From Oculatellaceae cyanobacterium bins.114 (GTDB lineage: Bacteria; Cyanobacteriota; Cyanobacteriia; Elainellales; Elainellaceae), in NCBI GenBank assembly GCA_033764315.1, contig JANRJA010000008.1, positions 1 through 26,980 of the forward strand: a stretch of DNA of 26,980 bases, given 5' to 3'. This document shows positions 1-21,045 of this stretch, piece by piece. A model generated the notes under the pieces. It ran no database searches. It was not told where the DNA came from and worked only from the letters and a program-made list of their open reading frames with translations. Within the stretch, counting starts at the first letter, position 1; each line of letters opens with the position of its first letter. The position numbers and the translations under genes were made by a program.

Positions 1-139
1 ACAGTTCATGGCTCCTTATGCTGAAATCGTTACCCAATTACTTCAACTCTCACCCCACAAGTGGCAGTATTATCGCAAGGGTATGAGGGCGATGAAGCTT
101 GTCCAGTCTGCTTTGTAGCTACTCTTGTCACCCCGTCAG
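1..139 (+). mobile_element. Right end of an IS4-family-like insertion sequence: partial transposase C-terminus (2..118) plus terminal sequence
   Basis: Frame 2..118 reads QFMAPYAEIVTQLLQLSPHKWQYYRKGMRAMKLVQSAL*. This resembles the C-terminus of cyanobacterial IS4-family transposases as I recall them. It is followed by a typical end, TTGTCACCCCGTCAG (125-139), where the neighbouring gene breaks. Confidence 0.75.
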
Positions 140-1902
140 CAAGTCAGGTCAAAAACGCCTGCGTAAATGCGGTTTGCCAGTTTGAGTTGACCCGCTTGAT
201 TCTCCACTAACCCCAGCTTGAGTAAAAACCGCAGTTCGGCACTGTCATCGGCAATCACGTCCTCTTGTTGCAAAATTTGTCGGTAAAGTTGCAAGATGCT
301 GATACATCTCTCATCCTCTAAAATTGCCTCCCGAATGGTTTTGAAGTGGTCTGTCGCAACGTGATGCTCCCAATCTTGAATCAGATGGGTTTGCACCAAC
401 TGTTCGACTTGAGTTGCCTCTTCTGCCGTTGGGATGGGTGCTCCTGCAACCAGCAACCGACAGAGATGCTCAGTTAAGGTGGGCTGTGAGCCAGTCCAGG
501 CTTGCACTTCCTGAATTAACACTGAGGGGTCGCTAGAGATGCGCTCTAACTCTGGCATAAAGCGTTTTAGAATGGTAGCCGCTTCTGTTTTGGCCAATTT
601 TGCCAGTTGCTCTGAAATTTCGCGGGTAATGCGATCGGCAACATCTTGACTACTGTGCAAAAAGCTCTGATCTTGCTTGGTTAGATGCTTTCCCTCTGCC
701 CATGCCAGTGCATCTAACAGAGCACGCCCCCGCAACAACCGCGATTCATCATGACACTCTGAGGCAAACCAGGCATCCATTGCCTCTTTATAGGGACGCA
801 GTTCTGCCAGGGCTTCCTGCACCCATTGCTCGTTAAACACCTCCCGATAGATCGTGTTGTAGACGGTTAACACTCCATTGCGCTTGACGACCAACCCCGA
901 TAGCCGCAGTTCTACTTGTTCTGGGCTGTCATCTGCAGGAATCTCGCCACGTTGCAAAATTTGTTGGTAGATGCCCAATAATCGTCCCGTGTTTTCTGGC
1001 TTACGAAAGAGGCGATCGCGGATAGTGCGTAAATGTTCTGGTTCATCCTGACTTTCCCAATTGGTGATACAGCGCGATCGCACAAATTGTTCAATGGCTA
1101 CTGCTTCAGTCCCAGTGGCAATCTGCATTTCCTGCTTGAGAATCCAGCGGCACAATTTTTGTGTTAAAAACGGTTGCCCCCCAGTCCATTGCAATAGTTC
1201 TGCTAACACAGCTTGTGGATTCTCGACCTGGTCTTCTAATCCCTTGGCGAGTGGTTGCACTTCAGCAAGCTGAAACCCATGTAGCTCAATTGCTCGCCCC
1301 AGGTTAAATGGGGTGCGTTCTTTATCAGCAATCAGGGCTGAGGGAGTCGCCACCCCAATTAACACAAAGGTCAGCCGTTGATAAGCGGGTTTGTCGTTGC
1401 GCTGGTTATAGCAGGCGCGAATAAAGGCAAAAAAATCATCTGTAGGAAATTCTAGACTGAGAACGCTATCAATTTCATCGATAACGATAACGATATTTTG
1501 ATCAATTTGGGTGAGTAAAACGGACTCAATGAATTCTCCAAATCGAGCCAGGGGTGTGAGAAGACGGCGATCGTGCCACCATGACAATAGGTCAAAGTGC
1601 AGGTTGAGGCTATCGGCTAGACTGTTAATCAAGGTGGCATACCACTCGTCAGCAGTGACTTGTTGAATGCCGACTTTAGTCAAGTCAATTAGCGCACAAG
1701 CGAATCCTTCAGCTTCTAGTCGTTTGCGTGCCCTCACTTCTAGACTCGATTTGCCCATTTGACGAGAGTTCAAAATGTAGCAAAACTCTTTTGCCTGGAG
1801 TCCTTCGTACAGGTCTTTATCAGCTTGTCGCACGACGTAACTGGGTGCTTCAGGGGGTAGGGTGGCTCCGACCCGATATTCATAAGGTTGTTCATGATTC
1901 AT
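136..1902 (-). pseudogene. AAA-like (AAA_35/STAND-related) ATPase, 3'-truncated by the IS
   Basis: Walker A NSRQMGKSSL, Walker B IVIDEIDSVL, motifs WTGGQPFLTQKLC and DESRLLRG. Likely start is ATG 1902 (MNHEQPYEYRVGATL), 19 nt after the upstream stop. The stop codon at 136-138 lies inside the IS end. Confidence 0.8.
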
Positions 1903-1921
1903 GGTTAGTTGCGGTTCCCCT

Positions 1922-3265
1922 TCAGTTGCCAAAAACTTGTTGAAAATATTTGCGATACAGTAAACACCGAGGTTGGGCAAGGTTCCCTTCTAGTTTGATC
2001 AATCCCATGCTCTGAAGTTTAAATGCCTGTATCGATTTGAGTTCCAGGGCTTGCTCTGTGAGCACAAGTGTTTTGAAGAGTGTCATCATCTCAGGAGATT
2101 GCGCTAAGTCGGTTAAGAGTTGGCGCAGTGAACTGCTATAGATTCCGGCTTCAGTATGAGCCGTTTTCAATAATTCCTCTAATGGCACTTGTTGTCGTTT
2201 GGCGGCATTTATTGCCAACTGAATCAAATGAGGATGCCCTTCTACCCAACTCATCAGGCGATCGACCTCAGTGTGGCTCCAGGTTAAGTCGTATCGCTGT
2301 GCCAGATGCAAGACCTGATCGGCATTGAGGTCGGGTAGCTCAACAATCATTCCCACACCTGCCAAAGGGGATGTGTTGAGTTCAAGTGAGCTGTAAACCT
2401 CGGTGGAATGGGCAATAACCAACCGCAGATTTTGCCAAACTCGGCTGTGGCGTGCCCCTCGCATGGCCTGATCGTGCCAGTTGCGCAGGAGGTTGCAAAA
2501 ATCACTGGCGATTTCAGCATGTTCAAATACCCGATCGGTGTTGTCTAACACCAGCACGAGAGGATGATTGAGGGTTGGCAATAGGTAATTTTGTAGATAA
2601 GCAGTAGTGTTGTAATTGCACGATAAAAGATCTTTCCAAACACTATCAACTTGATTGGACAGTCCCAATTCTTCGCTTAACACAGCACAAAACCATTTGA
2701 GAAATCGATCGAGATCTGCAAAAACGGCGCGATCAGCGAGTTGAAAACTTAAGTGTATGCTGTCGTATTGAAGCTGGGTCGCCTGGTGCAAGATTTTAGC
2801 GATGAGAGAAGTTTTACCCATTTGACGAGGGGCTTTGATGCGAATCAGCATTCCCGGTTGAGCGATCGCCTTATAACAGTCAGCTTCGATGGGAGGGCGA
2901 TCGACATACAACGCTCCTTCTACATCCTTCCATGTCTCTCGTGGTACACGTGACAGCAATGGGGTGTGCAACTGATTCAGAGGTTCTACCAGTCGAGTAG
3001 GTTCTAAAACGGTGATTTCTGAAACTGACCCAGAATGAATGGATGCTTCTAAATCAGCGATTTCTTGCCAATTCAGATGTAATTCTGAGCAAATTTCCTC
3101 AAACACCCAAAAATCCACTGGTTTACCATTCAAAAACTTATCAACCGTTGCTTTGGCGCGTCTTAAGTGGATTGCGAAGGAAGTTTGACTCGGAAAGCCA
3201 TTTCGCTTGACGGCCAACTTCACCTGCTCAATGCATCCATTCCGAATTTTTAATGATCGTGCCAT
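1922..3265 (-). CDS. AAA-like (AAA_35) domain protein with an N-terminal HTH-like domain
   Basis: Motifs YVDRPPIEADCY, Walker A APRQMGKTSL, Walker B-like LVLDNTDRVF, and GHPHLIQLA. The N-terminus MARSLKI...GFPSQ...TVDKFLNGKPVD...FEEIC is a common cyanobacterial XRE-like module. Confidence 0.85.
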   Translation of the reverse strand: MARSLKIRNGCIEQVKLAVKRNGFPSQTSFAIHLRRAKATVDKFLNGKPVDFWVFEEICSELHLNWQEIADLEASIHSGSVSEITVLEPTRLVEPLNQLHTPLLSRVPRETWKDVEGALYVDRPPIEADCYKAIAQPGMLIRIKAPRQMGKTSLIAKILHQATQLQYDSIHLSFQLADRAVFADLDRFLKWFCAVLSEELGLSNQVDSVWKDLLSCNYNTTAYLQNYLLPTLNHPLVLVLDNTDRVFEHAEIASDFCNLLRNWHDQAMRGARHSRVWQNLRLVIAHSTEVYSSLELNTSPLAGVGMIVELPDLNADQVLHLAQRYDLTWSHTEVDRLMSWVEGHPHLIQLAINAAKRQQVPLEELLKTAHTEAGIYSSSLRQLLTDLAQSPEMMTLFKTLVLTEQALELKSIQAFKLQSMGLIKLEGNLAQPRCLLYRKYFQQVFGN

Positions 3266-4691: not shown

Positions 4692-5591
4692 ATGACAGAT
4701 TTAGCAACCGTTCAAGAACTGATTGAGCAAAACGAAGCTGCGGCTCAAACCCTGACAGGTGAAGTCGAGCGAGCGATTGAGCACATCGGTCAAATCGAAC
4801 AAGTGACCACTACACTGAATACGACTTTCACAGCCTCGCATCAGGAGTTTCAAACCCAGTTTGAACAATTCAAACATTTTTTAGAAACCCTGGAACAAAG
4901 CCTGACCGAAGAACTAGAACAGTCACAAACGAGTCTCGACCATCTGCAACAACAAGCGAGTGAAATCGAAAGCCAAGTACAAACTCTGGCAGAAGAAATC
5001 ACCAACCAACTGAGTCAGGTGAAAACTCAAGCTGAGGAAACGCTGACTCAGCTCGAAGCCGAAGCCGAATCAATCAAAACAAACCTAAATGAGTTAGCTC
5101 AAACGGCTCAAGAGGGTGAAACCGAGATGGGCGATCGCGGTGAAGAGAGTCAACAAAACCTCGACGATTATCGTCACCAGGTGGAGCAGGCAAAGGCTGA
5201 AATCCAGACCCAAAAGGATTCTCTGCTTGAAGAATTGAACTCTTTAGAGTCATCCATTAAAGCCAAATTACAGGAACTGACAGAGGAGTTTGATGCTTTA
5301 AACGAAGCAGGCACCACCCAACAAACGGAATTAGAAACGGCTGCCGATGATGTGCTAGAGCAAGCTAACGAAGCCCTGGTGGATCGACTGGGAGACTCGT
5401 TTATTGCTGACATGATGCAAACCGTGGATGCGATCAACGATGGCTTATCTGAATTGGGTGATGTTACAGACTCCATTGAGGAACTCATGGAGGGTCCAAT
5501 TGGCGACATTTTGGATACTGCCGGAGATATCACTGAGGCGATCGAACCCATTCTCAATGTCATTGAAATCGCTGAAGATGCACTGACCTGA
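4692..5591 (+). CDS. Acidic alpha-helical/coiled-coil protein 1 (299 aa), function unknown
   Basis: E/Q/T/L-rich with 3-4 hydrophobic spacing. Pro occurs only near the C-terminus. GGAGG RBS upstream. Confidence 0.85.
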   Translation: MTDLATVQELIEQNEAAAQTLTGEVERAIEHIGQIEQVTTTLNTTFTASHQEFQTQFEQFKHFLETLEQSLTEELEQSQTSLDHLQQQASEIESQVQTLAEEITNQLSQVKTQAEETLTQLEAEAESIKTNLNELAQTAQEGETEMGDRGEESQQNLDDYRHQVEQAKAEIQTQKDSLLEELNSLESSIKAKLQELTEEFDALNEAGTTQQTELETAADDVLEQANEALVDRLGDSFIADMMQTVDAINDGLSELGDVTDSIEELMEGPIGDILDTAGDITEAIEPILNVIEIAEDALT

Positions 5592-5600
5592 AAACTATTT

Positions 5601-5643
5601 TGACTCAGAAATCTGTGACTCAAAAATCTGTGACTCAAAAATC
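5601..5643 (+). repeat. Three tandem copies of the 15-mer TGACTCARAAATCTG (last copy partial)
   Basis: tgactcagaaatctg tgactcaaaaatctg tgactcaaaaatc, read directly. Confidence 0.9.
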
Positions 5644-5678
5644 ATTATCGACCGACTTACTTTACAGGAGAGCACATC

Positions 5679-6650
5679 ATGTCTATTGCCCAAGAATTTG
5701 GTCAGTCGCTTCAAGAAGCAGCAGAACACTTGAATCAACTTCTTCAGGTGTTGGAACAAACCCATGAACAGCTAGAAACAACAGATGCAGAGATTGCATC
5801 AAGCAGTGAAGCCTTTCAGCAATCTACAGATGCCCTGGATACAGCACTTCAAGCCCTGGGAGATACCCTGCAATCGAGCGAAGATTCTTTGCAAGGAGGA
5901 GAGGAAATCTCGACTGCCTTGGATCAGTGGCAACAATCTACAGATCAAGCAGGACAACACTTACAGGAGTTAACCCAGTCGATCGACTCGTTGCACCACC
6001 AATTTGAGACGCACCTTGCCGAAAACCTGGCGGAGTTTGAACAACCCCTCACCGAAGTGATTGAGGCTGTGGGAGCGATCGCCGATGAGATTGAGAGTTT
6101 AGAAGCGACGCTGAGCCAAAACCGTGAAGCAACTCAGCAAGAATTTGAAACCTTCTTGCAATCTCTAGGAGAACTGCAACAGCAACTCGAAACCCTGGAA
6201 TCTGAAGTTGGAACTGACCTGAAGGAATTCAACACAGAGTTACGAGAAACAATCACTGAAGTCGAGAGTATGTTTGAGCAGTTCAGCCAGCAATTGAGTC
6301 AACAGCAAAGTGATATGGTTGCTGAATGTGATGATCTCGAAACAGCTTTGAGAGATTTGTACGACCAACTCAAGCAGGAAATCGAAACTGTCGCAGATGA
6401 GTTAGAACACAAGATCTCTGAGATTTCTGAAAAGACAATTCAAGAGCTGTATGAGAAATGTACTGATCCATTGAGAGCCAGAATCCTTGCATTTAGCACT
6501 GAGATTTTGGTGATGGTTGTGGATGAACTGACGGAACGAGGTGTGCGGATTGGCGTTGGTGTAACAGTGACAGGTATTCTCGGTGGTCTTATCCCCTGGT
6601 TAGTCGCTGCCAAATTAACCACATTTGCCCTGGAAAAAATATTTAACTGA
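5679..6650 (+). CDS. Acidic alpha-helical/coiled-coil protein 2 (323 aa) with a C-terminal hydrophobic segment
   Basis: E/Q/L-rich helical body. C-terminus IGVGVTVTGILGGLIPWLVAA. AGGAGAG RBS. Confidence 0.85.
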   Translation: MSIAQEFGQSLQEAAEHLNQLLQVLEQTHEQLETTDAEIASSSEAFQQSTDALDTALQALGDTLQSSEDSLQGGEEISTALDQWQQSTDQAGQHLQELTQSIDSLHHQFETHLAENLAEFEQPLTEVIEAVGAIADEIESLEATLSQNREATQQEFETFLQSLGELQQQLETLESEVGTDLKEFNTELRETITEVESMFEQFSQQLSQQQSDMVAECDDLETALRDLYDQLKQEIETVADELEHKISEISEKTIQELYEKCTDPLRARILAFSTEILVMVVDELTERGVRIGVGVTVTGILGGLIPWLVAAKLTTFALEKIFN

Positions 6651-6759
6651 TGTCAACGTGCACCGTGTTTTACGGATGTGCATCCAGATATTAACTGAGA
6701 TCCAGAAAACTAACCGTTTTCTAAATTGTGCCCATAGACTTACGTAAGGACATTGAGTC

Positions 6760-7677
6760 ATGAATGATGTGTTTAATTCGCTCGCCCAAATCGCAACGAC
6801 AGCCCCTCAACAGTTAGCGGCGATCGCTCAAGAAGTTGTAGCAGTACAGGAAATCGCCACCCAGCTAGAAACCAGTTTGGAGGAAAAACAAACTGAGATT
6901 GAGGCGTTGATTCAACAATTGGAAACCGCGTTTCAAACCTTTCAACAAGAAATCACAGAACAGCAGAGTGAGACGGAAGACCTCGTATCAGAGCTACAAG
7001 CAGGAGTAGAGTCATTAGAGGGCACGATGACTGAGGCTCAAGACCAGTTGAGCCGTGAATTGCAAACCACTCAAGAGGCGATCGCCACTCTTAAAAATCA
7101 GTTAGAAGAACAAAAAACGACGTTGAATACTGCCAGTGAAGAAACAGAAACAGCATTAACTGAGATCCAAGAAACCCTGCAAACCAGCCAGGAGCAACTG
7201 ACAACAGCCCAAGATGCGTTGAGCCAAAGTGCCGATGAACTCCAGGAAAAGATTGCTAATTCCAAAGCAACTGTAAGCGATGGAACTGAGCAACTCAATC
7301 AAGCATTCCAGGATGCAGAGCAAGACTTAACGACCTTAATGGAAGATCTGGCAAATCGCTTTATGGAACTGCAACAAACCGTTGAAATGGATCACAAAGA
7401 GATTAAAGAACTCATGCAAGAGCAGGCACAGGAACTGGAAGAATCAGCGGAGCAGGTGAGCAAAGACATCATAGAAATCGCAGAAGCTGTTGTTCAACTG
7501 CTGATGATGGCACTTGACCACTGGATTGACACATTTTTGGAGAAAAATGATGAATCAAAATCACTCGGTGTAGAAATTACTCCGCTGATTGAAGGGTTGC
7601 AGGAACTGGTCAGAGCACTCCCCGAACAGTTAGAGAAGGTTGAAGAGGTTGCTCAAGAAGTGGGAGTTTTGGCGTAA
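6760..7677 (+). CDS. Acidic alpha-helical/coiled-coil protein 3 (305 aa)
   Basis: E/Q/T/A/L-rich helical body with an amphipathic C-terminus (ITPLIEGLQELVRALPEQL). AAGGA upstream. Confidence 0.85.
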   Translation: MNDVFNSLAQIATTAPQQLAAIAQEVVAVQEIATQLETSLEEKQTEIEALIQQLETAFQTFQQEITEQQSETEDLVSELQAGVESLEGTMTEAQDQLSRELQTTQEAIATLKNQLEEQKTTLNTASEETETALTEIQETLQTSQEQLTTAQDALSQSADELQEKIANSKATVSDGTEQLNQAFQDAEQDLTTLMEDLANRFMELQQTVEMDHKEIKELMQEQAQELEESAEQVSKDIIEIAEAVVQLLMMALDHWIDTFLEKNDESKSLGVEITPLIEGLQELVRALPEQLEKVEEVAQEVGVLA

Positions 7678-7806
7678 GTAAAAGGCTGGAGGATGAGCAA
7701 TGAAGGATTTAGGATTCATGTCACTCTCTAGCCTTCATCCTTGGTTCAATCCCTTCACAAGAGCAATCACCATTCTATTGATTCACCCCCTTACAGGAGA
7801 TTTATC

Positions 7807-8706
7807 ATGGCTGATTTTGTCAACGTTGCCAACGAAACACTAACTCAACTCACCGCATTACTGGAACATGCTGAACATACTCAAACCGCTTTAAGCGAAT
7901 CACACAACCATCTATCTCAGACCACAGACCAAATTGAATCTGACTGGGATTCAGTGACAAGCCATGCACAGAGCCTATTAGACCACATCACCAGTAGCCA
8001 GGAAACCCTTAGCAGTAAGCACCAAACCACCACCGATGTCTTAACGCAACTCAAGAGTCAACTGGAGGAACTGCAAACACAGATCGATCAGGAAGTGGCA
8101 GACACTCAGGCTGCGATCGCCCACCTCAACGAGCGTACCGAAGCCCTCGGCTCTGAATTAGACCAAACGTTTCAAGAGGCAGAAGATGCCTACACTGCAT
8201 TCAAAGACAAAACTGAAGAAACACGCTCAACGCTGGAGGAGAGTGTTTCCCAAACCGAATCAGACATTCAAGATAATGTCATACCTGAGTTGCAATCTTA
8301 TAGTGCTGAGATTGAGCAACACACTGAGCAGGTAGAGAGCACGTTAGAGGAAAGTCGTACTGATATCGCCACTCATGTTCAAGAATCTGAGCAGCACTTT
8401 CAGGAGGTAGAAGAGGCGATCGTCACCAAAGTAACTGAGGTTGGTGAGTTGTTTAAAACGTCTCTAACTGAAGCTCTGGCTGAACTAACTCAGGAGATGA
8501 ACGAAAGCTTTGATATCACTATCAAGAATGTCATGGATATTCATCAAATGTTCGAGAGATATAAGGAAGTGATGGATGAAGGAACACAAAATACGGAGCA
8601 AATCTTTGGTCTAGTCGGCATTGGTGAACGGCGTGCCATCTTTGGACTCACTCTGGTCATTGGCATTATTACCGATGTGCTCAAAATTTTGAGCGGTGAA
8701 GAGTGA
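7807..8706 (+). CDS. Acidic alpha-helical/coiled-coil protein 4 (299 aa) with a C-terminal hydrophobic segment
   Basis: ATG 7807 (MADFVNVA) follows AGGAGA. Helical E/T/Q-rich body. C-terminus AIFGLTLVIGIITDVLKIL. Confidence 0.85.
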   Translation: MADFVNVANETLTQLTALLEHAEHTQTALSESHNHLSQTTDQIESDWDSVTSHAQSLLDHITSSQETLSSKHQTTTDVLTQLKSQLEELQTQIDQEVADTQAAIAHLNERTEALGSELDQTFQEAEDAYTAFKDKTEETRSTLEESVSQTESDIQDNVIPELQSYSAEIEQHTEQVESTLEESRTDIATHVQESEQHFQEVEEAIVTKVTEVGELFKTSLTEALAELTQEMNESFDITIKNVMDIHQMFERYKEVMDEGTQNTEQIFGLVGIGERRAIFGLTLVIGIITDVLKILSGEE

Positions 8707-8917: not shown

Positions 8918-11116
8918 ATGGTACTTGTACAACCATCCAATCCTGCCACCACAATTTCACCCCAATCGCTATCACCCGATCACCTTTGGCAGGAACGATA
9001 TCAAATCATCAAGCCCTTGGGTCAAGGAGGATTTGGTGCAACTTATCTGGCAATTGATACGCACCATGCCGACCAAGCTCAGTGTGTGATTAAACAGCTC
9101 AAACCCTTCACTGAGAGTGGGTTTAGCAGCGCAGACGAGACTCAACGACGATTTCAGCGGGAAGTGAATGCTCTGAAACAACTTGGACACCACGACCAGA
9201 TTCCGCAATTGCTTGATCATGTGGAAGTCAACGGTGAACTGTATTTGGTGCAGGAGTTTATTGCAGGGCGATCGCTGGAGCAAGAACTGACCTTAAACAC
9301 CGACAACACTGACCCGTCTTGTTGGAGTGAACCGCAGGTCATTCAACTGCTGCAAGACGTGTCGCAGGTCTTGGCATTTGTTCACAGCCAGGGCATGATT
9401 CACCGCGATATCAAGCCCAGCAATTTGATGCGTCGCCAACTCGACCATCGGTTTGTTCTGATTGATTTTGGGGCGATCGCGCCCATTCACCCTAGTGCAG
9501 ATCTGGCACCCGACCAACCCAGTGTGACTCTGGCAATTCACACGGAGGGCTATACCCCCATCGAGCAGTTGCGCGGCAAACCCTGCCCCGCCAGTGACTT
9601 CTACGCGTTGGGAATGGTAGCCATTCAAGCGTTGACCGGGTTGCATCCTAGAGAGTTTGAAGAAACTCTGTCACTCAAAGACATCACCTGGTTTCAAACC
9701 GCACAAGTCAGTGCTGGACTGATTGCCGTTCTGGTGACGATGACTCGCCGCTGTTGGAGCGATCGCTATCAAACAGCTGAAAAGGTTTTGCAAGACCTTC
9801 AGGATTTAGTCGGTTGTTCCCTCGCTGGAGTCCCTGATTCGCTATCTCTGCTAACTCAGCAGGCTACACCGACAACACATGCAGGAGCAGCGATTGAATA
9901 TACCCCCACCCAAGTCACGACTCCTACCCCTGCCGAAACTCCCCCCTCTGCCTCTCCACTGCCCTCTCCGCTGCCCCCCACTGACTTCCATTTGACTGGC
10001 ACTCACAGTCGAAGCCCCGTACCCCCTGCCGACTCCCCTCCTTCCCCACTTCTTCTCGCTAAAAACCGTTGGAAGCGGTTATTTACTCCTCGGCTGTGTT
10101 CTCTGTTAATGGGCGTTGGACTGATCTCAATGGGTGCCTGCATCTTGGTTGGGTTAATTGCAGGATGGCAGGTAGGAGAAGGGCGATCGCCGCAAGAATC
10201 TGTAGAAGCCAGCCCCCTGCCGATCAAGTTTTTACTCACCACCCTGACGGCAAAGGCGGCTGTTCGATCGATCGCTTTTGATGCGGCTGATCAGACACTG
10301 GTAGGTGGATTAGCAGACCATACAACCGTTCGCTGGGACATCGCTCTGGCACAACCGATTCAGACTTTTACCAGTCACTTTAGTCCAGTCACAGTGGTAG
10401 TAGTTAGCCCAGAGGGGCAACTGCTGGCGACGGGAGGTGAAGACACCAACATTACGTTGTGGAATCTTCAGACGGGTGAACTGTTGCACACCTTAAGGGG
10501 ACATTGCTGGTCGATCTTATCTCTGGCCTTGAGTCCGGATGCGCACACGTTAGTCAGCAGTAGCGACGACCATACAGTGCGGTTTTGGGATGTCACGACC
10601 GGAAAGTTACTACACACCCTGACAGACTTTCAGGAACCGTTTCTGTCGATGGATATCAGTCTGGATGGCTCAATGTTGGTGGGAGGTAGTGCCAACAATA
10701 CGATTACGGTTTGGAATGCTCATACCCAAGCGGTATTACGAACGTTGAGAGGGCATTCTGACCAGGTGAACTCGGTTGCCATTAGTGCTAATGGGGCGGT
10801 GTTGGTAAGCGGTAGTGCAGACCATACTGTGAAAGTTTGGAACCTCTACACCGGGGAGATGCTACACAGCCTGACCGGGCATCGCGATACCGTTAACGCG
10901 GTTGCTATTAGCCCGAATGGTCGTTTTTTGGTCAGTGGGAGTGCCGATCAAACGATCAAAATTTGGGATCTCTACAGCGGAGAGTTGATCGACACATTAC
11001 GCGATCGCACCACTGAAATTTCTGCGATCGCCATCAGTCCTGACGGCAAAACGCTGGCCAGCGCAGGGTTAGATGGCACTGTCAAAATTTGGCAAATGCC
11101 CAACTCAGAGGTATAA
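8918..11116 (+). CDS. Hanks-type Ser/Thr protein kinase with a Pro-rich linker, one TM helix and a WD40 beta-propeller
   Basis: Kinase motifs GQGGFG, VIK, HRDIKPSN, DFG, GYTPIEQ and SDFYALG. Pro/Ser/Thr-rich linker. TM segment LLMGVGLISMGACILVGLIAGW. About seven GH...WD/WN repeats. Confidence 0.95.
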   Translation: MVLVQPSNPATTISPQSLSPDHLWQERYQIIKPLGQGGFGATYLAIDTHHADQAQCVIKQLKPFTESGFSSADETQRRFQREVNALKQLGHHDQIPQLLDHVEVNGELYLVQEFIAGRSLEQELTLNTDNTDPSCWSEPQVIQLLQDVSQVLAFVHSQGMIHRDIKPSNLMRRQLDHRFVLIDFGAIAPIHPSADLAPDQPSVTLAIHTEGYTPIEQLRGKPCPASDFYALGMVAIQALTGLHPREFEETLSLKDITWFQTAQVSAGLIAVLVTMTRRCWSDRYQTAEKVLQDLQDLVGCSLAGVPDSLSLLTQQATPTTHAGAAIEYTPTQVTTPTPAETPPSASPLPSPLPPTDFHLTGTHSRSPVPPADSPPSPLLLAKNRWKRLFTPRLCSLLMGVGLISMGACILVGLIAGWQVGEGRSPQESVEASPLPIKFLLTTLTAKAAVRSIAFDAADQTLVGGLADHTTVRWDIALAQPIQTFTSHFSPVTVVVVSPEGQLLATGGEDTNITLWNLQTGELLHTLRGHCWSILSLALSPDAHTLVSSSDDHTVRFWDVTTGKLLHTLTDFQEPFLSMDISLDGSMLVGGSANNTITVWNAHTQAVLRTLRGHSDQVNSVAISANGAVLVSGSADHTVKVWNLYTGEMLHSLTGHRDTVNAVAISPNGRFLVSGSADQTIKIWDLYSGELIDTLRDRTTEISAIAISPDGKTLASAGLDGTVKIWQMPNSEV

Positions 11117-11119
11117 ATC

Positions 11120-13342
11120 ATGGTTGTCAAAGCCGATAAACTAGCACAAACGATCGCTGAACTCCAGTCCACTATTACCGCTCATTCCCAAACTGACGCT
11201 CGATTTCAACCCATTGGGCGATCGCTTGAAACGACTGCAACCATTCTCAAAACAGGAAAGTTATCGCTTCACATCATCAGCCACTATGCTGAGGCCGCCC
11301 AGATCTTGTTGCGGTTTCTGCGAGCGTCTCAAACCCTCACTGAGAAGTACTACATCACGGTGGCAGCAGTTCCCCAGGAATGGTCTGTCCCCGTTGAATC
11401 AGACCTTACTAACATCTTGCTGCTTCCCATCTCAGCCGATCAGCAACATGAGTTTCACCTGACCGCCACTCAGCCTTTGGCGATCGGGCGGCATCCTAAA
11501 TGTCAGGTCTTTATTCCTGACCCCTACCTGCTGGTGTCTGGTCATCATGCCGATCTGCAACCGACCTCTGACGCAGTCACTCCAGGCTGGCAAATCTGCG
11601 ATCGCAGTCGCAATGGCACCTTTGTCAATGGACACCGAATCGAAGATTGGCAGACCTTAGAAGATGGCGATCAGATTACATTGGGGAGTCCGTTTCCGAC
11701 AGAGACATGCCCAACTTTGATCTTTGAATCCCACCGCATGGAAGCAGAATATCCTTCCTCTCATGCAGTGCTGGACTGTGATGTTGTGTGTTTTGTCTTT
11801 GATGCAGAGCGATCGCTTTCCAACGATGAAAAAAACCTCTTAGAACAAGCCAGTCAGGTTCCTCTAATTAAATGGATGGCGATCGCAATGAACGGCGATG
11901 CTCCTATCTCCAATGAAGCGGATTGGGTTATCCCAATCGGTGTCACTGATCTGCGATCGCGCCTGCATCCGTCAACGCACCCCCTCTCGGTAGAGGAATG
12001 GTCGCTGTCTTTACAGACCGATCCAGTGGCGGCACACAGCAAGCCAGACCAAAGTAAATTAGAGGTTGCAAAGCGACATCCAGACAAGCAATTAGAGAAG
12101 TTAATTAAATCACTCGAATCACTTGTCAGACGCAAGCCCGAAGATCTATTAGCCAAACGCTTGGCTCTTCAAGTGGCACACCAGTCAGAGGCGATCGAGG
12201 CTCTCCTCAAGGGTCAGGCAAAACGACTGCACATTGAGCAAACTTGGGATCAATTGAGGCTTAACTCGTCTCACGCCGATGCACCTCAAACTATTCTAGA
12301 GACTCGCTTAAAACCCATTGAGGATGATTTGCTATCGCTCTTTAAACAGATGAGAGAGCGGTTGCCCCAGGCCAAAAGTCGATTGCTCGATGATTATTTA
12401 GAATCCAGCATTCTTAACCGGATTCAACAGTTTGTGCACCGCCTTCAAGCCTGTGTGGTACAGCAGCACGGCAAGAAACTGCTGCAACTCAAACCACCCG
12501 CATCTACAGCAATGTCTGCCATGCCTAAACGAGCCAAAATTAGGCGCAGAAAATCTCGGCTGGTTGTCTTTCAAACTAGGTCTCAAGTTCAAAGAGAGAT
12601 GGCTGCCCCCCCGCCTGACAACGATGCCAATACGGCATTAATCTGCTTTTGTCGGAACGAGTTAACTCAGTGGGCAGATCAGGAGTGGAGAGAGTTTCTG
12701 ATGGGCAATGACATAAAGAACACAAAGGGAGCCGTAGACCTGCTAGAAGATCTCCGAGCCGTCTTAACTTCTCACGGAGAATCTCTGGACGATCTCTCGT
12801 TGCAAATTACCTCACCTGACTACACTCCTGTCTTTGACGAAATATTCACCAAACCACTCGATAGTACGCGCTATCAAGAACCTCATCCATTTTTTCACAT
12901 CCTTAAAAAAGTCAGAAACCAGTGGATGCAATTTCTCTTTATGTTCAGTTTTCTCAGCGTTTTGGGTATTGCAGGACGTAAGCAAATCATGCAACATTTG
13001 ACTGCCCCAATCGCAGTAGCCTTTCATGCTGCTCCCTGGATAGCTAGTGTAGTCACAGGTGGGGTACTGTTGTTTGTGATCAAGCTGTTGATGCAGTGGT
13101 ATCGCGACGATCGCGACACCGAACGTGAGGAGGAAGCGAAAAAGCTACGACAGGGACTAACCACGCATTACCAAGCTTTGGTTAAAAACCGCCTGACAGA
13201 CAAAATTGTTCAGCGGCTGATCGTTGCTTTAGACACCGAAGAACAAAAGCTAAGGGAACTGCTTCAGTCTCTCAAACCCACCCCAAAAGGTTCTGTGGCA
13301 AAAATAGGTCAAGGGCAAGGTGGGAAAATCTTTAACTCTTAG
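11120..13342 (+). CDS. FHA-domain protein with a helical C-terminal region and two hydrophobic segments; possible degenerate dynamin-like fold
   Basis: FHA motifs IGRH, VSGHHA, SRNGTFVNG and LEDGDQITLG are intact. Hydrophobic segments FLFMFSFLSVLGIAG and WIASVVTGGVLLFVIKLLM. Starts 3 nt after the kinase stop. Confidence 0.85.
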   Translation: MVVKADKLAQTIAELQSTITAHSQTDARFQPIGRSLETTATILKTGKLSLHIISHYAEAAQILLRFLRASQTLTEKYYITVAAVPQEWSVPVESDLTNILLLPISADQQHEFHLTATQPLAIGRHPKCQVFIPDPYLLVSGHHADLQPTSDAVTPGWQICDRSRNGTFVNGHRIEDWQTLEDGDQITLGSPFPTETCPTLIFESHRMEAEYPSSHAVLDCDVVCFVFDAERSLSNDEKNLLEQASQVPLIKWMAIAMNGDAPISNEADWVIPIGVTDLRSRLHPSTHPLSVEEWSLSLQTDPVAAHSKPDQSKLEVAKRHPDKQLEKLIKSLESLVRRKPEDLLAKRLALQVAHQSEAIEALLKGQAKRLHIEQTWDQLRLNSSHADAPQTILETRLKPIEDDLLSLFKQMRERLPQAKSRLLDDYLESSILNRIQQFVHRLQACVVQQHGKKLLQLKPPASTAMSAMPKRAKIRRRKSRLVVFQTRSQVQREMAAPPPDNDANTALICFCRNELTQWADQEWREFLMGNDIKNTKGAVDLLEDLRAVLTSHGESLDDLSLQITSPDYTPVFDEIFTKPLDSTRYQEPHPFFHILKKVRNQWMQFLFMFSFLSVLGIAGRKQIMQHLTAPIAVAFHAAPWIASVVTGGVLLFVIKLLMQWYRDDRDTEREEEAKKLRQGLTTHYQALVKNRLTDKIVQRLIVALDTEEQKLRELLQSLKPTPKGSVAKIGQGQGGKIFNS

Positions 13343-19659: not shown

Positions 19660-19995
19660 GTGCCTCGTGAAAATCATCCCGCTCTGGTATCTGACTTGAT
19701 CGAAGAATTTCGGGCATTTGTAGTCGATTCACTGGTACTCTATTTGACAAATTCTGCAATTTTGAATCTAGAGGATTTCACACCACCAGATGAACGGGGA
19801 GGAGTTTATCTGCACCCGGATGCCTTGAAGCGATTTTTAAAGCATTGGGAGGATAAGCTTCAAACTGAGATTGTTCATCCTCACTCAGGGCATAAAGTGA
19901 ACTATCGACGCTGTATGGAGCTACAGGTTTGGGAATATATCGCTTGTTTGATTGGCGATCGCGAGATTTATCGCCCCATGAGATGGGAAATTTAG
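19660..19995 (+). pseudogene. cas1: 3' remnant of a CRISPR-associated endonuclease Cas1 gene
   Basis: HPALVSDLIEEFRAFVVDSLV...EDFTPPDERGGVYL...YRRCMELQV...YRPM is the Cas1 C-terminal region. An in-frame TGA lies a few codons upstream, and the preceding catalytic His motif is missing. Confidence 0.9.
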
Positions 19996-20381: not shown

Positions 20382-20921
20382 GTTCATCAACCCATTACCC
20401 CGCAAGGGAACGGAAACAAGCAGAGCAACAGAGCCTAGACTGGACGCGGCAAAAGTTCATCAATCCATTACCCCGCAAGGGGACGGAAACTCTCTTAGCG
20501 TAGCAAGCCGATCAGGATCATAACCGTTCATCAATCCATTACCCCGCAAGGGGACGGAAACTGAGGTTGGGGTGTTGGCTCTGGTTGCAGGTTATCTGGT
20601 TCATCAATCCATTACCCCGCAAGGGGACGGAAACACCAAATTGAGAAAAAGGGAAAACAGGATAACCACAGACAGTTCATCAATCCATTACCCCGCAAGG
20701 GGACGGAAACCTTCTGTCCAGGCGTATGTCTTCTTGCCTGAACTTTGAGGTTCATCAATCCATTACCCCGCAAGGGGACGGAAACTCTCTTGGCGATCCA
20801 CCGTAAAGGTTTGTGCGCCGTTGAGTTCATCAATCCATTACCCCGCAAGGGGACGGAAACAAAATTCCGTCCCGATGTTGCCCACGCCGAGGTTCATCAA
20901 TCCATTACCCCGCAAGGGAAC
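20382..20921 (+). CRISPR. CRISPR array: 8 repeats (36-nt consensus GTTCATCAATCCATTACCCCGCAAGGGGACGGAAAC) and 7 spacers
   Basis: Repeats start at 20382, 20455, 20526, 20599, 20675, 20750, 20825 and 20892 (last one truncated). Spacers are 37, 35, 37, 40, 39, 39 and 31 nt. The CCCC-GCAA-GGGG hairpin and GAAAC end resemble cyanobacterial type III repeats. Confidence 0.98.
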
Positions 20922-21045
20922 CTACTGTGTACACAGATCTCGGGTTGAGAGTTCAAGACCTGGCTCGATCCCCCTCAATCCCCCTTGAAAAGGACTTTGA
21001 CTTCGATCCCCTCCTTTTTAAGGAGGGTTAGGGAGGATCAAACCC
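20922..21045. repeat. Cyanobacterial small dispersed palindromic repeat / MITE-like element abutting the last CRISPR repeat
   Basis: CTACTGTGTACACAG followed by GATCCCCCTCAATCCCCCTTGAAAAGGACTTTGA...CCCTCCTTTTTAAGGAGGGTTAGGGAGGATC, with nested inverted repeats of a type common in cyanobacteria. Confidence 0.7.

Follow-up and report, generated by a model that had tools for sequence, protein, structure and literature searches.

The gene at positions 11120..13342 (+) of a 26,980-nucleotide stretch of DNA from Oculatellaceae cyanobacterium bins.114 (assembly GCA_033764315.1, contig JANRJA010000008.1, positions 1 to 26,980; the whole stretch is referred to as the window) encodes P0001, a protein of 740 amino acids (aa) with an ATG start. 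With a probability of roughly 0.6, we regard P0001 as a pseudo-GTPase derived from bacterial dynamin-like proteins (BDLPs), which carries an embedded forkhead-associated (FHA) domain and a paddle-derived hairpin anchor and which belongs to a conserved module with a membrane kinase bearing a WD40 propeller and four coiled-coil (CC) proteins, CC1-4. This reading draws on profile similarity to dynamins, on the loss of the GTPase motifs throughout a family of relatives, on the integrity of the FHA domain and on gene neighbourhood. Bacterial dynamins are poorly understood and, to our knowledge, every characterised one is an active GTPase.

The window genome encodes genuine dynamins, one of which (684 aa) is orthologous over its full length to the Nostoc punctiforme BDLP of known structure (2J68/2J69/2W6D; E 1e-297) and is called BDLP below. 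A diverse dynamin profile was built from 22 cyanobacterial Dynamin_N proteins of 41 genomes, with a larger version of 28 dynamin-like proteins (DLPs), and was compared with alignments of the P0001 family, for which three sets were used: the 12 closest relatives (A1), 97 aligned family members (A2) and the twelve FHA-less relatives (A3). In hhalign, A2 matched the 22-protein profile at 96.4% (E 1.3e-9, score 88.9) and the 28 DLPs at 96.8% (score 96.1), and the natural FHA-less set A3 matched the 22-protein profile at 85.3% (score 57.2); reversed-profile controls scored 19.3-19.5 for A2 and 25-27 for A3. The alignment is co-linear over ~455 columns and relates aa 184-733 to BDLP 158-647. Within it, aa 213-300 align with the β4-α3-β5 segment of BDLP, the hydrophobic pair aa 602-619/640-660 aligns with the BDLP paddle (512-577), being longer than the paddle and of transmembrane (TM) length, and the last helix aligns with the C-terminal helix of BDLP. 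The strongest local match is a non-helical strand-helix element, in which DCDVVCFVFDAERSLSNDEKNLLE stands opposite NCHAILFVLRASQPCTMAERRYLE and which runs on into the first stalk helix (A3 and A2 against A4, a profile of close BDLP homologs).

When 32 single-sequence templates from the window genome were compared, BDLP came out on top with a score of 42.6, and 30 random long open reading frames (ORFs) scored 11.5-30.0, the best among these being a P-loop GTPase. HMMER searches were run with filters off against all 965 ORFs of 450-1000 aa in the window genome. The top non-self match of an FHA-free family hidden Markov model (HMM) was BDLP (E 2.2e-6; the next at 0.01), and in the reverse direction a DLP HMM ranked P0001 sixth (E 0.003), behind BDLP itself and four ORFs that were checked and carry a Walker A motif each. 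The matching segments are co-linear and comprise the post-G3 strand-helix, the first stalk helix, and the second paddle helix with the C-terminal helix. Three DLP subgroups also align aa ~217-400 of the family (164-393 for the Tandem-A-like subgroup) with their own post-G3-to-stalk region at 35-66%; as a parent clade, none of the cyanobacterial BDLP subgroups stands out. Language-model features of the FHA-less relative P0060 reached 0.90-0.95, and 10/10 of its best matches that carry a family name are Dynamin_N/MMR_HSR1 clusters; P0001 itself reached 0.81-0.82 in the atlas, a value to be read as a lead only. Alignment-averaged secondary-structure propensities, a crude measure based on a propensity table, gave the order strand-helix-strand, FHA, strand-helix-strand-helix, the same as in the BDLP control. 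The region around the FHA domain is a putative, reduced α/β domain of the G type.

The initial annotation had read a degenerate dynamin layout from the letters of P0001. All strings on which it relied were located (LKTGKLSLHIISHYAEAAQILLRFL at aa 43-67, DCDVVCFVFDAERSLSNDEKNLLEQASQVPLIKWMAIAMN at aa 219-258 and PKRAKIRRRKSR at aa 469-480), as was the long helical region with a hydrophobic hairpin (aa 602-619 and 640-660) and a charged return helix. Homology of the post-FHA strand-helix-strand, stalk, hairpin and return helix to bacterial DLPs is borne out by hhalign (96.4-96.8%) and HMMER (E 2.2e-6). At the level of profile comparison, significant dynamin likeness is confined to the region after the FHA domain.

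The motifs of GTP binding and hydrolysis have been lost across the whole family, as had been claimed earlier for GxxxxGKS and NKxD of P0001. The pattern [GA]xxxxGK[ST] occurs in 0/97 family members, and P0001 likewise has no GxxxxGK[ST]; the G1-equivalent loop follows the consensus IV-S(68)/G(21)-x-N/D-P-x-L-A-Q-A-L-Q-N-L-L. The G4-equivalent columns of the 97 members read (I/V)(I/V)(V/A)(D/E)x instead of NKxD, and in the BDLP alignment WMAIAMNGD of P0001 falls opposite FFLINAWD (G4). The G3 motif DxxG was not found at its aligned position, where VTALP stands opposite VDSPG in the FHA-less alignment. Because G1, G3 and G4 are lost, P0001 is predicted not to bind GTP. According to the available portion of a survey of cyanobacterial BDLPs, nearly all of these proteins, which fall into six clades, retain an extended P-loop, and that portion never mentions FHA (PMC5827413).

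Two observations were made on other members of the dynamin superfamily. The second, tandem BDLP of the window genome (550 aa; L002 460-2112 (-), G000:C172; L055) reads APFNYGKS, with A for the first P-loop Gly; here a genuine Dynamin_N protein naturally carries a partial variant of the P-loop. The atlas search with P0060 placed thirteen unnamed clusters of ~530-545 aa (Cyanobacteriota, Actinomycetota and others) beside the dynamin clusters with scores of at least 0.9, and these may be further P-loop-less bacterial dynamin-like families.

The FHA domain of P0001 is intact. PF00498 matches aa 122-189 with E 6.7e-15 (55.7 bits against a cut-off of 20.7) and is the sole Pfam domain of the protein; NCBIfam gave FHA-type matches only, below threshold, and a sequence search of the PDB returned FHA domains only, with the FHA domain of Rv1747 (6CAH) as the best match. 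G123-R124, S140, H143 and N165-G166-T167 are all present in P0001, and among FHA-bearing members R124 is kept in 83/85, S140 in 79/85, H143 in 84/85 and N165 in 78/87 (90-99%). The conserved Arg, Ser, His and Asn are what we take to be the phosphothreonine (pThr)-binding residues of FHA domains. The earlier claim of an intact domain thus stands on a Pfam match above cut-off and on conserved binding residues, and the domain is predicted to be a functional-looking pThr-binding module.

Its history differs from what had been proposed. The A3 profile matches P0001 in two pieces (profile 1-95 to aa 1-95, and profile 92-553 to aa 213-727), and aa ~96-212 are therefore a discrete FHA module at the site that the initial annotation had named. 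Its further suggestion that the domain was inserted into a dynamin-like scaffold does not hold in the sense of a late insertion, which is contradicted by trees calculated from non-FHA columns, for which the root was not inferred. The 12 FHA-less members form three nested groups in the FastTree phylogeny, at least four changes of state between FHA and no FHA are needed in IQ-TREE, and the approximately unbiased (AU) test rejects monophyly of the FHA-less members (delta lnL 317, p 9.7e-6). In addition, the FHA-less P0105 keeps the relic LQISKLNSTNDTSANS, aligned with WQICDLNSTNGTYVNG of its sister. The nested groups, the AU test and the relic indicate that the FHA domain was ancestral to the family and was deleted repeatedly, with at least three losses; judged from trees and relic, it is an embedded part of the protein and no recent insertion. 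The strand that precedes the FHA site, YQFHVTALP in the FHA-less alignment, pairs with VEIVDSPG of BDLP, which contains G3. Since this strand aligns with G3, the FHA domain probably occupies the position of switch II, with the second core strand before it and the post-switch II strand after it, a placement that is moderately supported.

Relatives of P0001 were collected by several searches. When the complete P0001 sequence was used in a word-indexed search, a single full-length relative came up (64% identity). With aa 205-740 as the query, the same type of search yielded eleven proteins of 737-768 aa at 34-60% identity, each of which has a precomputed FHA domain. They come from Leptolyngbyaceae, Trichocoleus and other Cyanophyceae, and their sources give them no other name than 'FHA domain-containing protein' or 'hypothetical protein'. 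An exhaustive phmmer search returned 942 proteins with E<=0.001, of which 139 reached <=1e-10 and 79 reached <=1e-30; when 22 phmmer matches were scanned with Pfam (E<=0.01), FHA was present in 8 and lacking in 14, and Dynamin_N was found in 0. Mean column identity is 23% across A2 (97) and 62% within A1 (12). The twelve FHA-less relatives (553-651 aa) share the N-terminal helix, 'GKLxxQIVS..P..AQ.L' and 'DCDVLCLV...', with a short linker between. The FHA flanks are more than a linker, because they are conserved across the 97 members and retained in the natural FHA-less relatives. Among 401 evenly sampled cyanobacterial genomes, 9 contain the family (8/156 genera).

Three further sequences touch on the delimitation of the family. 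The strong family-HMM match C110_15451_16830 was rejected as a member: it is an FHA-PrsW intramembrane protease (L072 3452-4828 (+), G000:C110) with similarity confined to the FHA domain, which is 35% identical to that of P0001. Several kinds of membrane protein carry this same cyanobacterial FHA subtype (WQICDL.S.NGT..NG...). A 525/553-aa ORF located 3' of unlinked CC sets was considered as a hidden family member and dropped on null scores. Directly 3' of the full-length family gene in G158 lies a partial second copy (L013/L065, G158:C2 ~395-1129), which covers aa 518-737 only at 44% identity in a 260-aa frame and corresponds to a duplicated hairpin plus C-terminal helix fragment.

The genomic neighbourhood links P0001 to a membrane kinase. 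The Ser/Thr kinase (STK)-TM-WD40 gene directly upstream ends with a TAA stop codon (11114-11116) 3 nt before the ATG of the pseudo-dynamin gene, GAGG is present ~9 nt upstream of this ATG, and no terminator-like site was found between the two genes. A full-length ortholog of the kinase (31-48% identity) lies directly upstream on the same strand at 8/12 FHA-bearing loci with upstream DNA (the window, L009-L014 and G294); the G302 copy on C42 begins at the contig end. In G296, a separate kinase and an FHA-WD40 protein are encoded within ~5 kb of the family gene. STK-WD40 kinases are common in filamentous cyanobacteria, as stated in the available part of PMC2176072.

The linker that follows the kinase domain is Pro/Thr/Ser-rich, with 14 Thr in 100 aa, and variable save for a YTPTQ(V/M/L) island, which is kept in 7/8 kinase orthologs, with T329 in 8/8; the kinase of the window has YTPTQV at aa 328-333 (nt 9899-9916). 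YTPTQ is found in 1 of the genome's 965 long ORFs, and split kinases carry YTPTE(I/L)I or HPTEII just past the kinase domain. The YTPT[QE] island is a candidate docking site for the FHA domain.

The second set of partners, CC1-4, consists of four tandem paralogs (4692..8706) of 299-323 aa, which are acidic and contain 9-11.5% Thr. Orthologous CC sets lie beside the family gene in L009-L011, L014, G158, G294, G296 and G302. Tandem CC sets (E<=1e-34) occur in 8/401 cyanobacterial genomes (5 GTDB families, 7 genera), and 8/8 of these hold the family, a count to which related genomes do not contribute independently; in G101, the ninth genome with the family, the copy is divergent and FHA-less and there is no CC set. 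The CC set is unlinked to the family gene in three of the eight genomes, and the unlinked sets of G198 and G238 adjoin a kinase and a GluR-type channel, in G238 also an FHA-WD40 gene.

The GluR-type ligand-gated channel (SBP_bac_3 and Lig_chan, Pfam-confirmed) lies between the kinase and CC1-4 at L060 15220-16332 and L069 6434-7600, and an ORF of similar size (365 aa, L070 6653-7747) is found at the same place. Glutamate-receptor-type channels may be a further conserved member of the module in genomes with the split architecture.

These components suggest a mechanism in which the kinase would phosphorylate Thr residues in its own juxtamembrane linker (candidate YTPT[QE]) and/or in the Thr-rich CC proteins, and the FHA domain would dock on pThr. 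Docking would then recruit or reorganise a membrane-anchored dynamin-like scaffold, with the hairpin, which sits where the BDLP paddle lies, as its predicted membrane-inserting element. The phosphorylation signal would in this way take over the role that the GTP cycle has in true dynamins. A tentative extension, which we hold possible though doubtful, is a GTP-independent dynamin machine: the membrane kinase with its trans-membrane WD40 sensor would be the switch, and the P-loop-less scaffold, driven by pThr-FHA binding, might form a coat with the four CC proteins that remodels, repairs or stabilises thylakoid or cytoplasmic membranes.

Several observations weigh against a BDLP-derived pseudo-GTPase in a kinase-controlled module, some concerning the coupling to the kinase and others the dynamin origin. 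The FHA-bearing loci G178, G198 and G238 have neither an adjacent kinase nor FHA-WD40, and the FHA domain is dispensable in at least three lineages. An FHA-less paralog in G302, whose gene is divided between the overlapping ends of contigs C238 and C120, still has a 980-aa kinase-WD40 gene before it and three CC genes after it; a YTPTQ-like motif was not found in the post-kinase region of this 980-aa kinase (n=1). Because one FHA-less paralog keeps both kinase and CC neighbours, pThr docking cannot be the sole coupling, and the proposal of the initial annotation that pThr binding replaces nucleotide control is weakened by the same paralog. As for the CC proteins, their profile resembles exchangeable apolipoproteins (ApoA-IV, E 1.5e-16), and 788 PDB sequences match at E<=1. 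Such matches are of low specificity and point to a likeness of amphipathic helical repeats, from which homology does not follow; matches to apolipoprotein, ZorA, SMC and LeoBC were all treated in this way.

It is rather unlikely that the dynamin-derived body and the hairpin merely anchor the FHA domain as a docking platform or substrate of the kinase (FhaA/FipA-type), with no shaping of membranes. Such a passive adaptor would agree with the loss of all GTPase motifs, the conserved FHA residues, the tight coupling to the kinase gene and the fact that Hanks-kinase FHA adaptors are the nearest NCBIfam/PDB matches of the FHA domain itself. However, the ~500-aa non-FHA body is conserved family-wide and kept when the FHA domain is lost, FHA-less copies retain their kinase and CC partners, and a structural assembly is suggested by the strict co-occurrence, at the level of genomes, with four amphipathic helical proteins.

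The dynamin origin itself has been assessed against the chance, which we consider small, that P0001 is an unrelated helical membrane protein with a small α/β domain and an FHA domain, whose likeness to BDLP stems from helical composition and a shared C-terminal hairpin layout. Long helical proteins can inflate profile scores. Pfam Dynamin_N (PF00350) was found neither in P0001 (E<=1) nor in 22 relatives (E<=0.01), and profile searches of PDB sequences gave no dynamin. The atlas model of P0001 is poor (predicted template modelling score, pTM, 0.35), and its structure search returned FHA-type matches only. Taken as a single sequence, the genome's second BDLP scores 16.8, near null, and two DLP subgroups (GGTGAGKS, GAFSAGKS) are also near null. 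The shallow profile A4 (Neff ~2) gave 27% with A3 and 84% with A2. Moreover, when compared by itself with the BDLP G domain, the N-terminal flank scores no better than null (1.3%), and the default-stringency alignment begins at aa 184. The G1 register that the initial annotation had assigned to aa 43-67, with GKLSLHIISHYAEAAQILLRFL opposite GVFRLLVLGDMKRGKSTFLNAL, is present in the greedy alignment only and could not be upheld; because the flank alone is at null and the default alignment starts at aa 184, the G1 assignment rests on co-linearity. The same holds for aa 1-43, which match BDLP 17-65 in the greedy alignment only and which, by their position, may be the counterpart of the N-terminal neck helix of BDLP. 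Against an unrelated origin speak the rank of BDLP as best non-self match of the FHA-free HMM among 965 long ORFs, the drop in score from 89 to 19 upon profile reversal, and the scores of thirty random long ORFs, which reach 11.5-30 with a P-loop GTPase at their top. In addition, the strongest local match (DCDVVCFVFDAERSLSNDEKNLLE vs NCHAILFVLRASQPCTMAERRYLE) is non-helical, and the language-model result is independent.

The kinase, pseudo-dynamin and CC genes could also form an anti-phage or conflict system, comparable to dynamins of the DynA/LeoA type and to defences that rely on kinases. The patchy distribution (9/401 genomes), matches of the kinase domain to PADLOC kinase models (PD-T4-6, mad6), and a CRISPR array with two AAA_35 genes in the same window are in keeping with this idea. 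We nevertheless judge it improbable: PADLOC, including its LeoA and LeoBC models, gave no match for P0001 or the FHA-less P0060 (E<=0.01), and its kinase matches span the generic kinase domain only. Furthermore, the other neighbours in the window (NUDIX, phosphoesterase, TrmB, PMT and AAA_35 genes) had no tblastn match in the other family loci searched, and tblastn against plasmids found no copy of the family gene.

It is very improbable that P0001 has remained a nucleotide-regulated dynamin, with a degenerate G domain that uses non-canonical residues to bind a nucleotide or some other phosphate ligand: the loop equivalent to G1 is unchanged in length, Gly stands at position 54 in 21/97 members, DCD...C is conserved on the post-FHA strand and pseudoenzymes sometimes relocate key residues, but GK[ST] is present in no member, the G3 Asp and G4 NKxD are absent at the aligned positions, and FHA-less forms lack the switch I region, whose place is taken by FHA in the others.

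The closest known systems to the P0001 family are the Nostoc punctiforme BDLP (2J68/2J69/2W6D) and the cyanobacterial BDLP clades (PMC5827413), with which it shares the order of N-terminal helix, α/β domain, stalk and return helix. Both have a hydrophobic membrane element ~100 aa from the C-terminus, profile and HMM similarity is significant from the post-G3 strand to the C-terminus, and both types occur in the same phylum and in the window genome. In contrast to BDLPs, the P0001 family lacks G1, G3 and G4 as well as a Dynamin_N Pfam match, carries an FHA domain in the switch region and has two hydrophobic segments of TM length. The partners differ too, being a kinase and coiled-coil proteins for P0001, whereas BDLPs have a tandem second BDLP or KGK/chaperone neighbours.

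In concept, fungal Mmc1 comes closest to the P0001 family; it is compared here by the description in the available part of its report (bioRxiv 10.1101/2023.10.03.560745). Mmc1 is a pseudoenzyme resembling dynamin-related proteins (DRPs), which has BDLPs as closest matches, lacks all GTP-binding motifs and has two C-terminal TM segments; it is proposed to be a self-assembling membrane scaffold, not a motor. Like the P0001 family, it is a relative of the dynamin superfamily with lost GTP motifs. According to the same description it differs by its eukaryotic origin, its location in the mitochondrial inner membrane and its MICOS partner, and it has neither an FHA domain nor a kinase pairing.

FHA-bearing membrane proteins of Hanks-type kinases (the Rv1747 ABC transporter, 6CAH; FhaB/FipA; TagH) resemble P0001 in having a canonical FHA domain with conserved pThr residues. 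In these systems, the pThr sites of a membrane Ser/Thr kinase serve to recruit a membrane protein that has an FHA domain. The FHA domain of P0001, in contrast, is internal to a dynamin-derived domain and not terminal, and its effector body is unrelated to ABC transporters or to parts of type VI and type VII secretion systems (T6SS/T7SS). LeoA/LeoBC and DynA-type dynamins, which are linked to defence or membrane surveillance, share with P0001 membership in the bacterial dynamin superfamily and a patchy distribution; these are active GTPases, and PADLOC gave no LeoA or LeoBC match for P0001.

No description of an FHA-dynamin fusion or of a P-loop-less bacterial dynamin was found in full-text literature searches, supplements aside, and term searches found neither in the available portions of PMC5827413, PMC9950537 and PMC2176072; the terms FHA, kinase and pseudo do not occur in the review PMC9950537. 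A preprint on ParA and a permuted FHA domain proved to have no bearing on P0001. If P0001 is indeed a BDLP-derived pseudo-GTPase within such a module, a dynamin scaffold could run on a switch other than a nucleotide, and the family would be a bacterial counterpart to the fungal pseudo-dynamin Mmc1. The six-gene module, with its predicted phospho-site, its natural FHA-less controls and its co-occurrence signature, would also offer a testable handle on membrane dynamics in filamentous cyanobacteria.

Table 1. Features of the P0001 gene and of the module genes in the window; aa numbers refer to the respective protein.
Feature	Position	Strand	Basis or remark
Whole gene, FHA-bearing P-loop-less dynamin-like protein	11120..13342	+	ORF, Pfam, hhalign, HMMER
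N-terminal helices, aa 1-43	11120..11248	+	Conserved in A1/A2; helix propensity
Putative pseudo-G domain, first half, aa 44-95	11249..11404	+	Strand GKLSLHIIS, helix AEAAQILLRFL, strand YYITVAAV; no P-loop
FHA module, aa 96-212	11405..11755	+	Pfam core aa 122-189 = nt 11483-11686
Putative pseudo-G domain, second half, aa 213-300	11756..12019	+	DCDVVCFVF strand, SNDEKNLLEQ helix, KWMAIAMN strand
Helical stalk, aa 301-600	12020..12919	+	Profile alignment to BDLP
Polybasic loop PKRAKIRRRKSR, aa 469-480	12524..12559	+	Subclade-specific insertion
Hydrophobic hairpin, aa 602-619 and 640-660	12920..13099	+	Aligned to BDLP paddle
C-terminal return helix, aa 661-725	13100..13294	+	Charged; aligned to BDLP C-terminal helix
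Ser/Thr kinase-TM-WD40 gene	8918..11116	+	Kinase aa 28-293, TM aa 396-414, WD40 propeller aa ~441-730
CC1	4692-5591	+	Apolipoprotein-like helical paralog
CC2	5679-6650	+	Apolipoprotein-like helical paralog; ends in hydrophobic segment
CC3	6760-7677	+	Apolipoprotein-like helical paralog
CC4	7741-8706 (likely start 7807)	+	Apolipoprotein-like helical paralog; ends in hydrophobic segment

Some parts of P0001 differ in their degree of conservation. The motif RKPEDxL (aa 338-344), located where the first stalk helix begins, is invariant. At the polybasic loop, at least 4 K/R per 12 residues are present in 19/97 members, and 8 K/R in P0001 and P0002 only; the stretch is a subclade-specific loop and not family-wide. 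Cys aa 220 and 224 of the DCDVxC motif on the post-FHA strand (window 11777-11791) are each kept in 68/97 members, and true BDLP has a single Cys, in the NCH equivalent to this position.

Rfam and tRNA scans of the window gave nothing relevant. A CRISPR array at 20382-20937 (+) comprises eight ~36-nt repeats (GTTCATCAATCCATTACCCCGCAAGGGGACGGAAAC), 67-76 nt apart, the last being degenerate. It is preceded by a 111-aa ORF (19660-19995 (+)) that matches the C-terminal end of Cas1 only (Pfam 222-282 of 283) and is a truncated cas1; no other cas genes were found among the window ORFs of at least 120 aa scanned with Pfam, and the array is an orphan. At the other end of the window, a pair of neighbouring AAA_35 (AAA-like domain) genes, which encode 614 and 447 aa, occupies 136-3265 (-).

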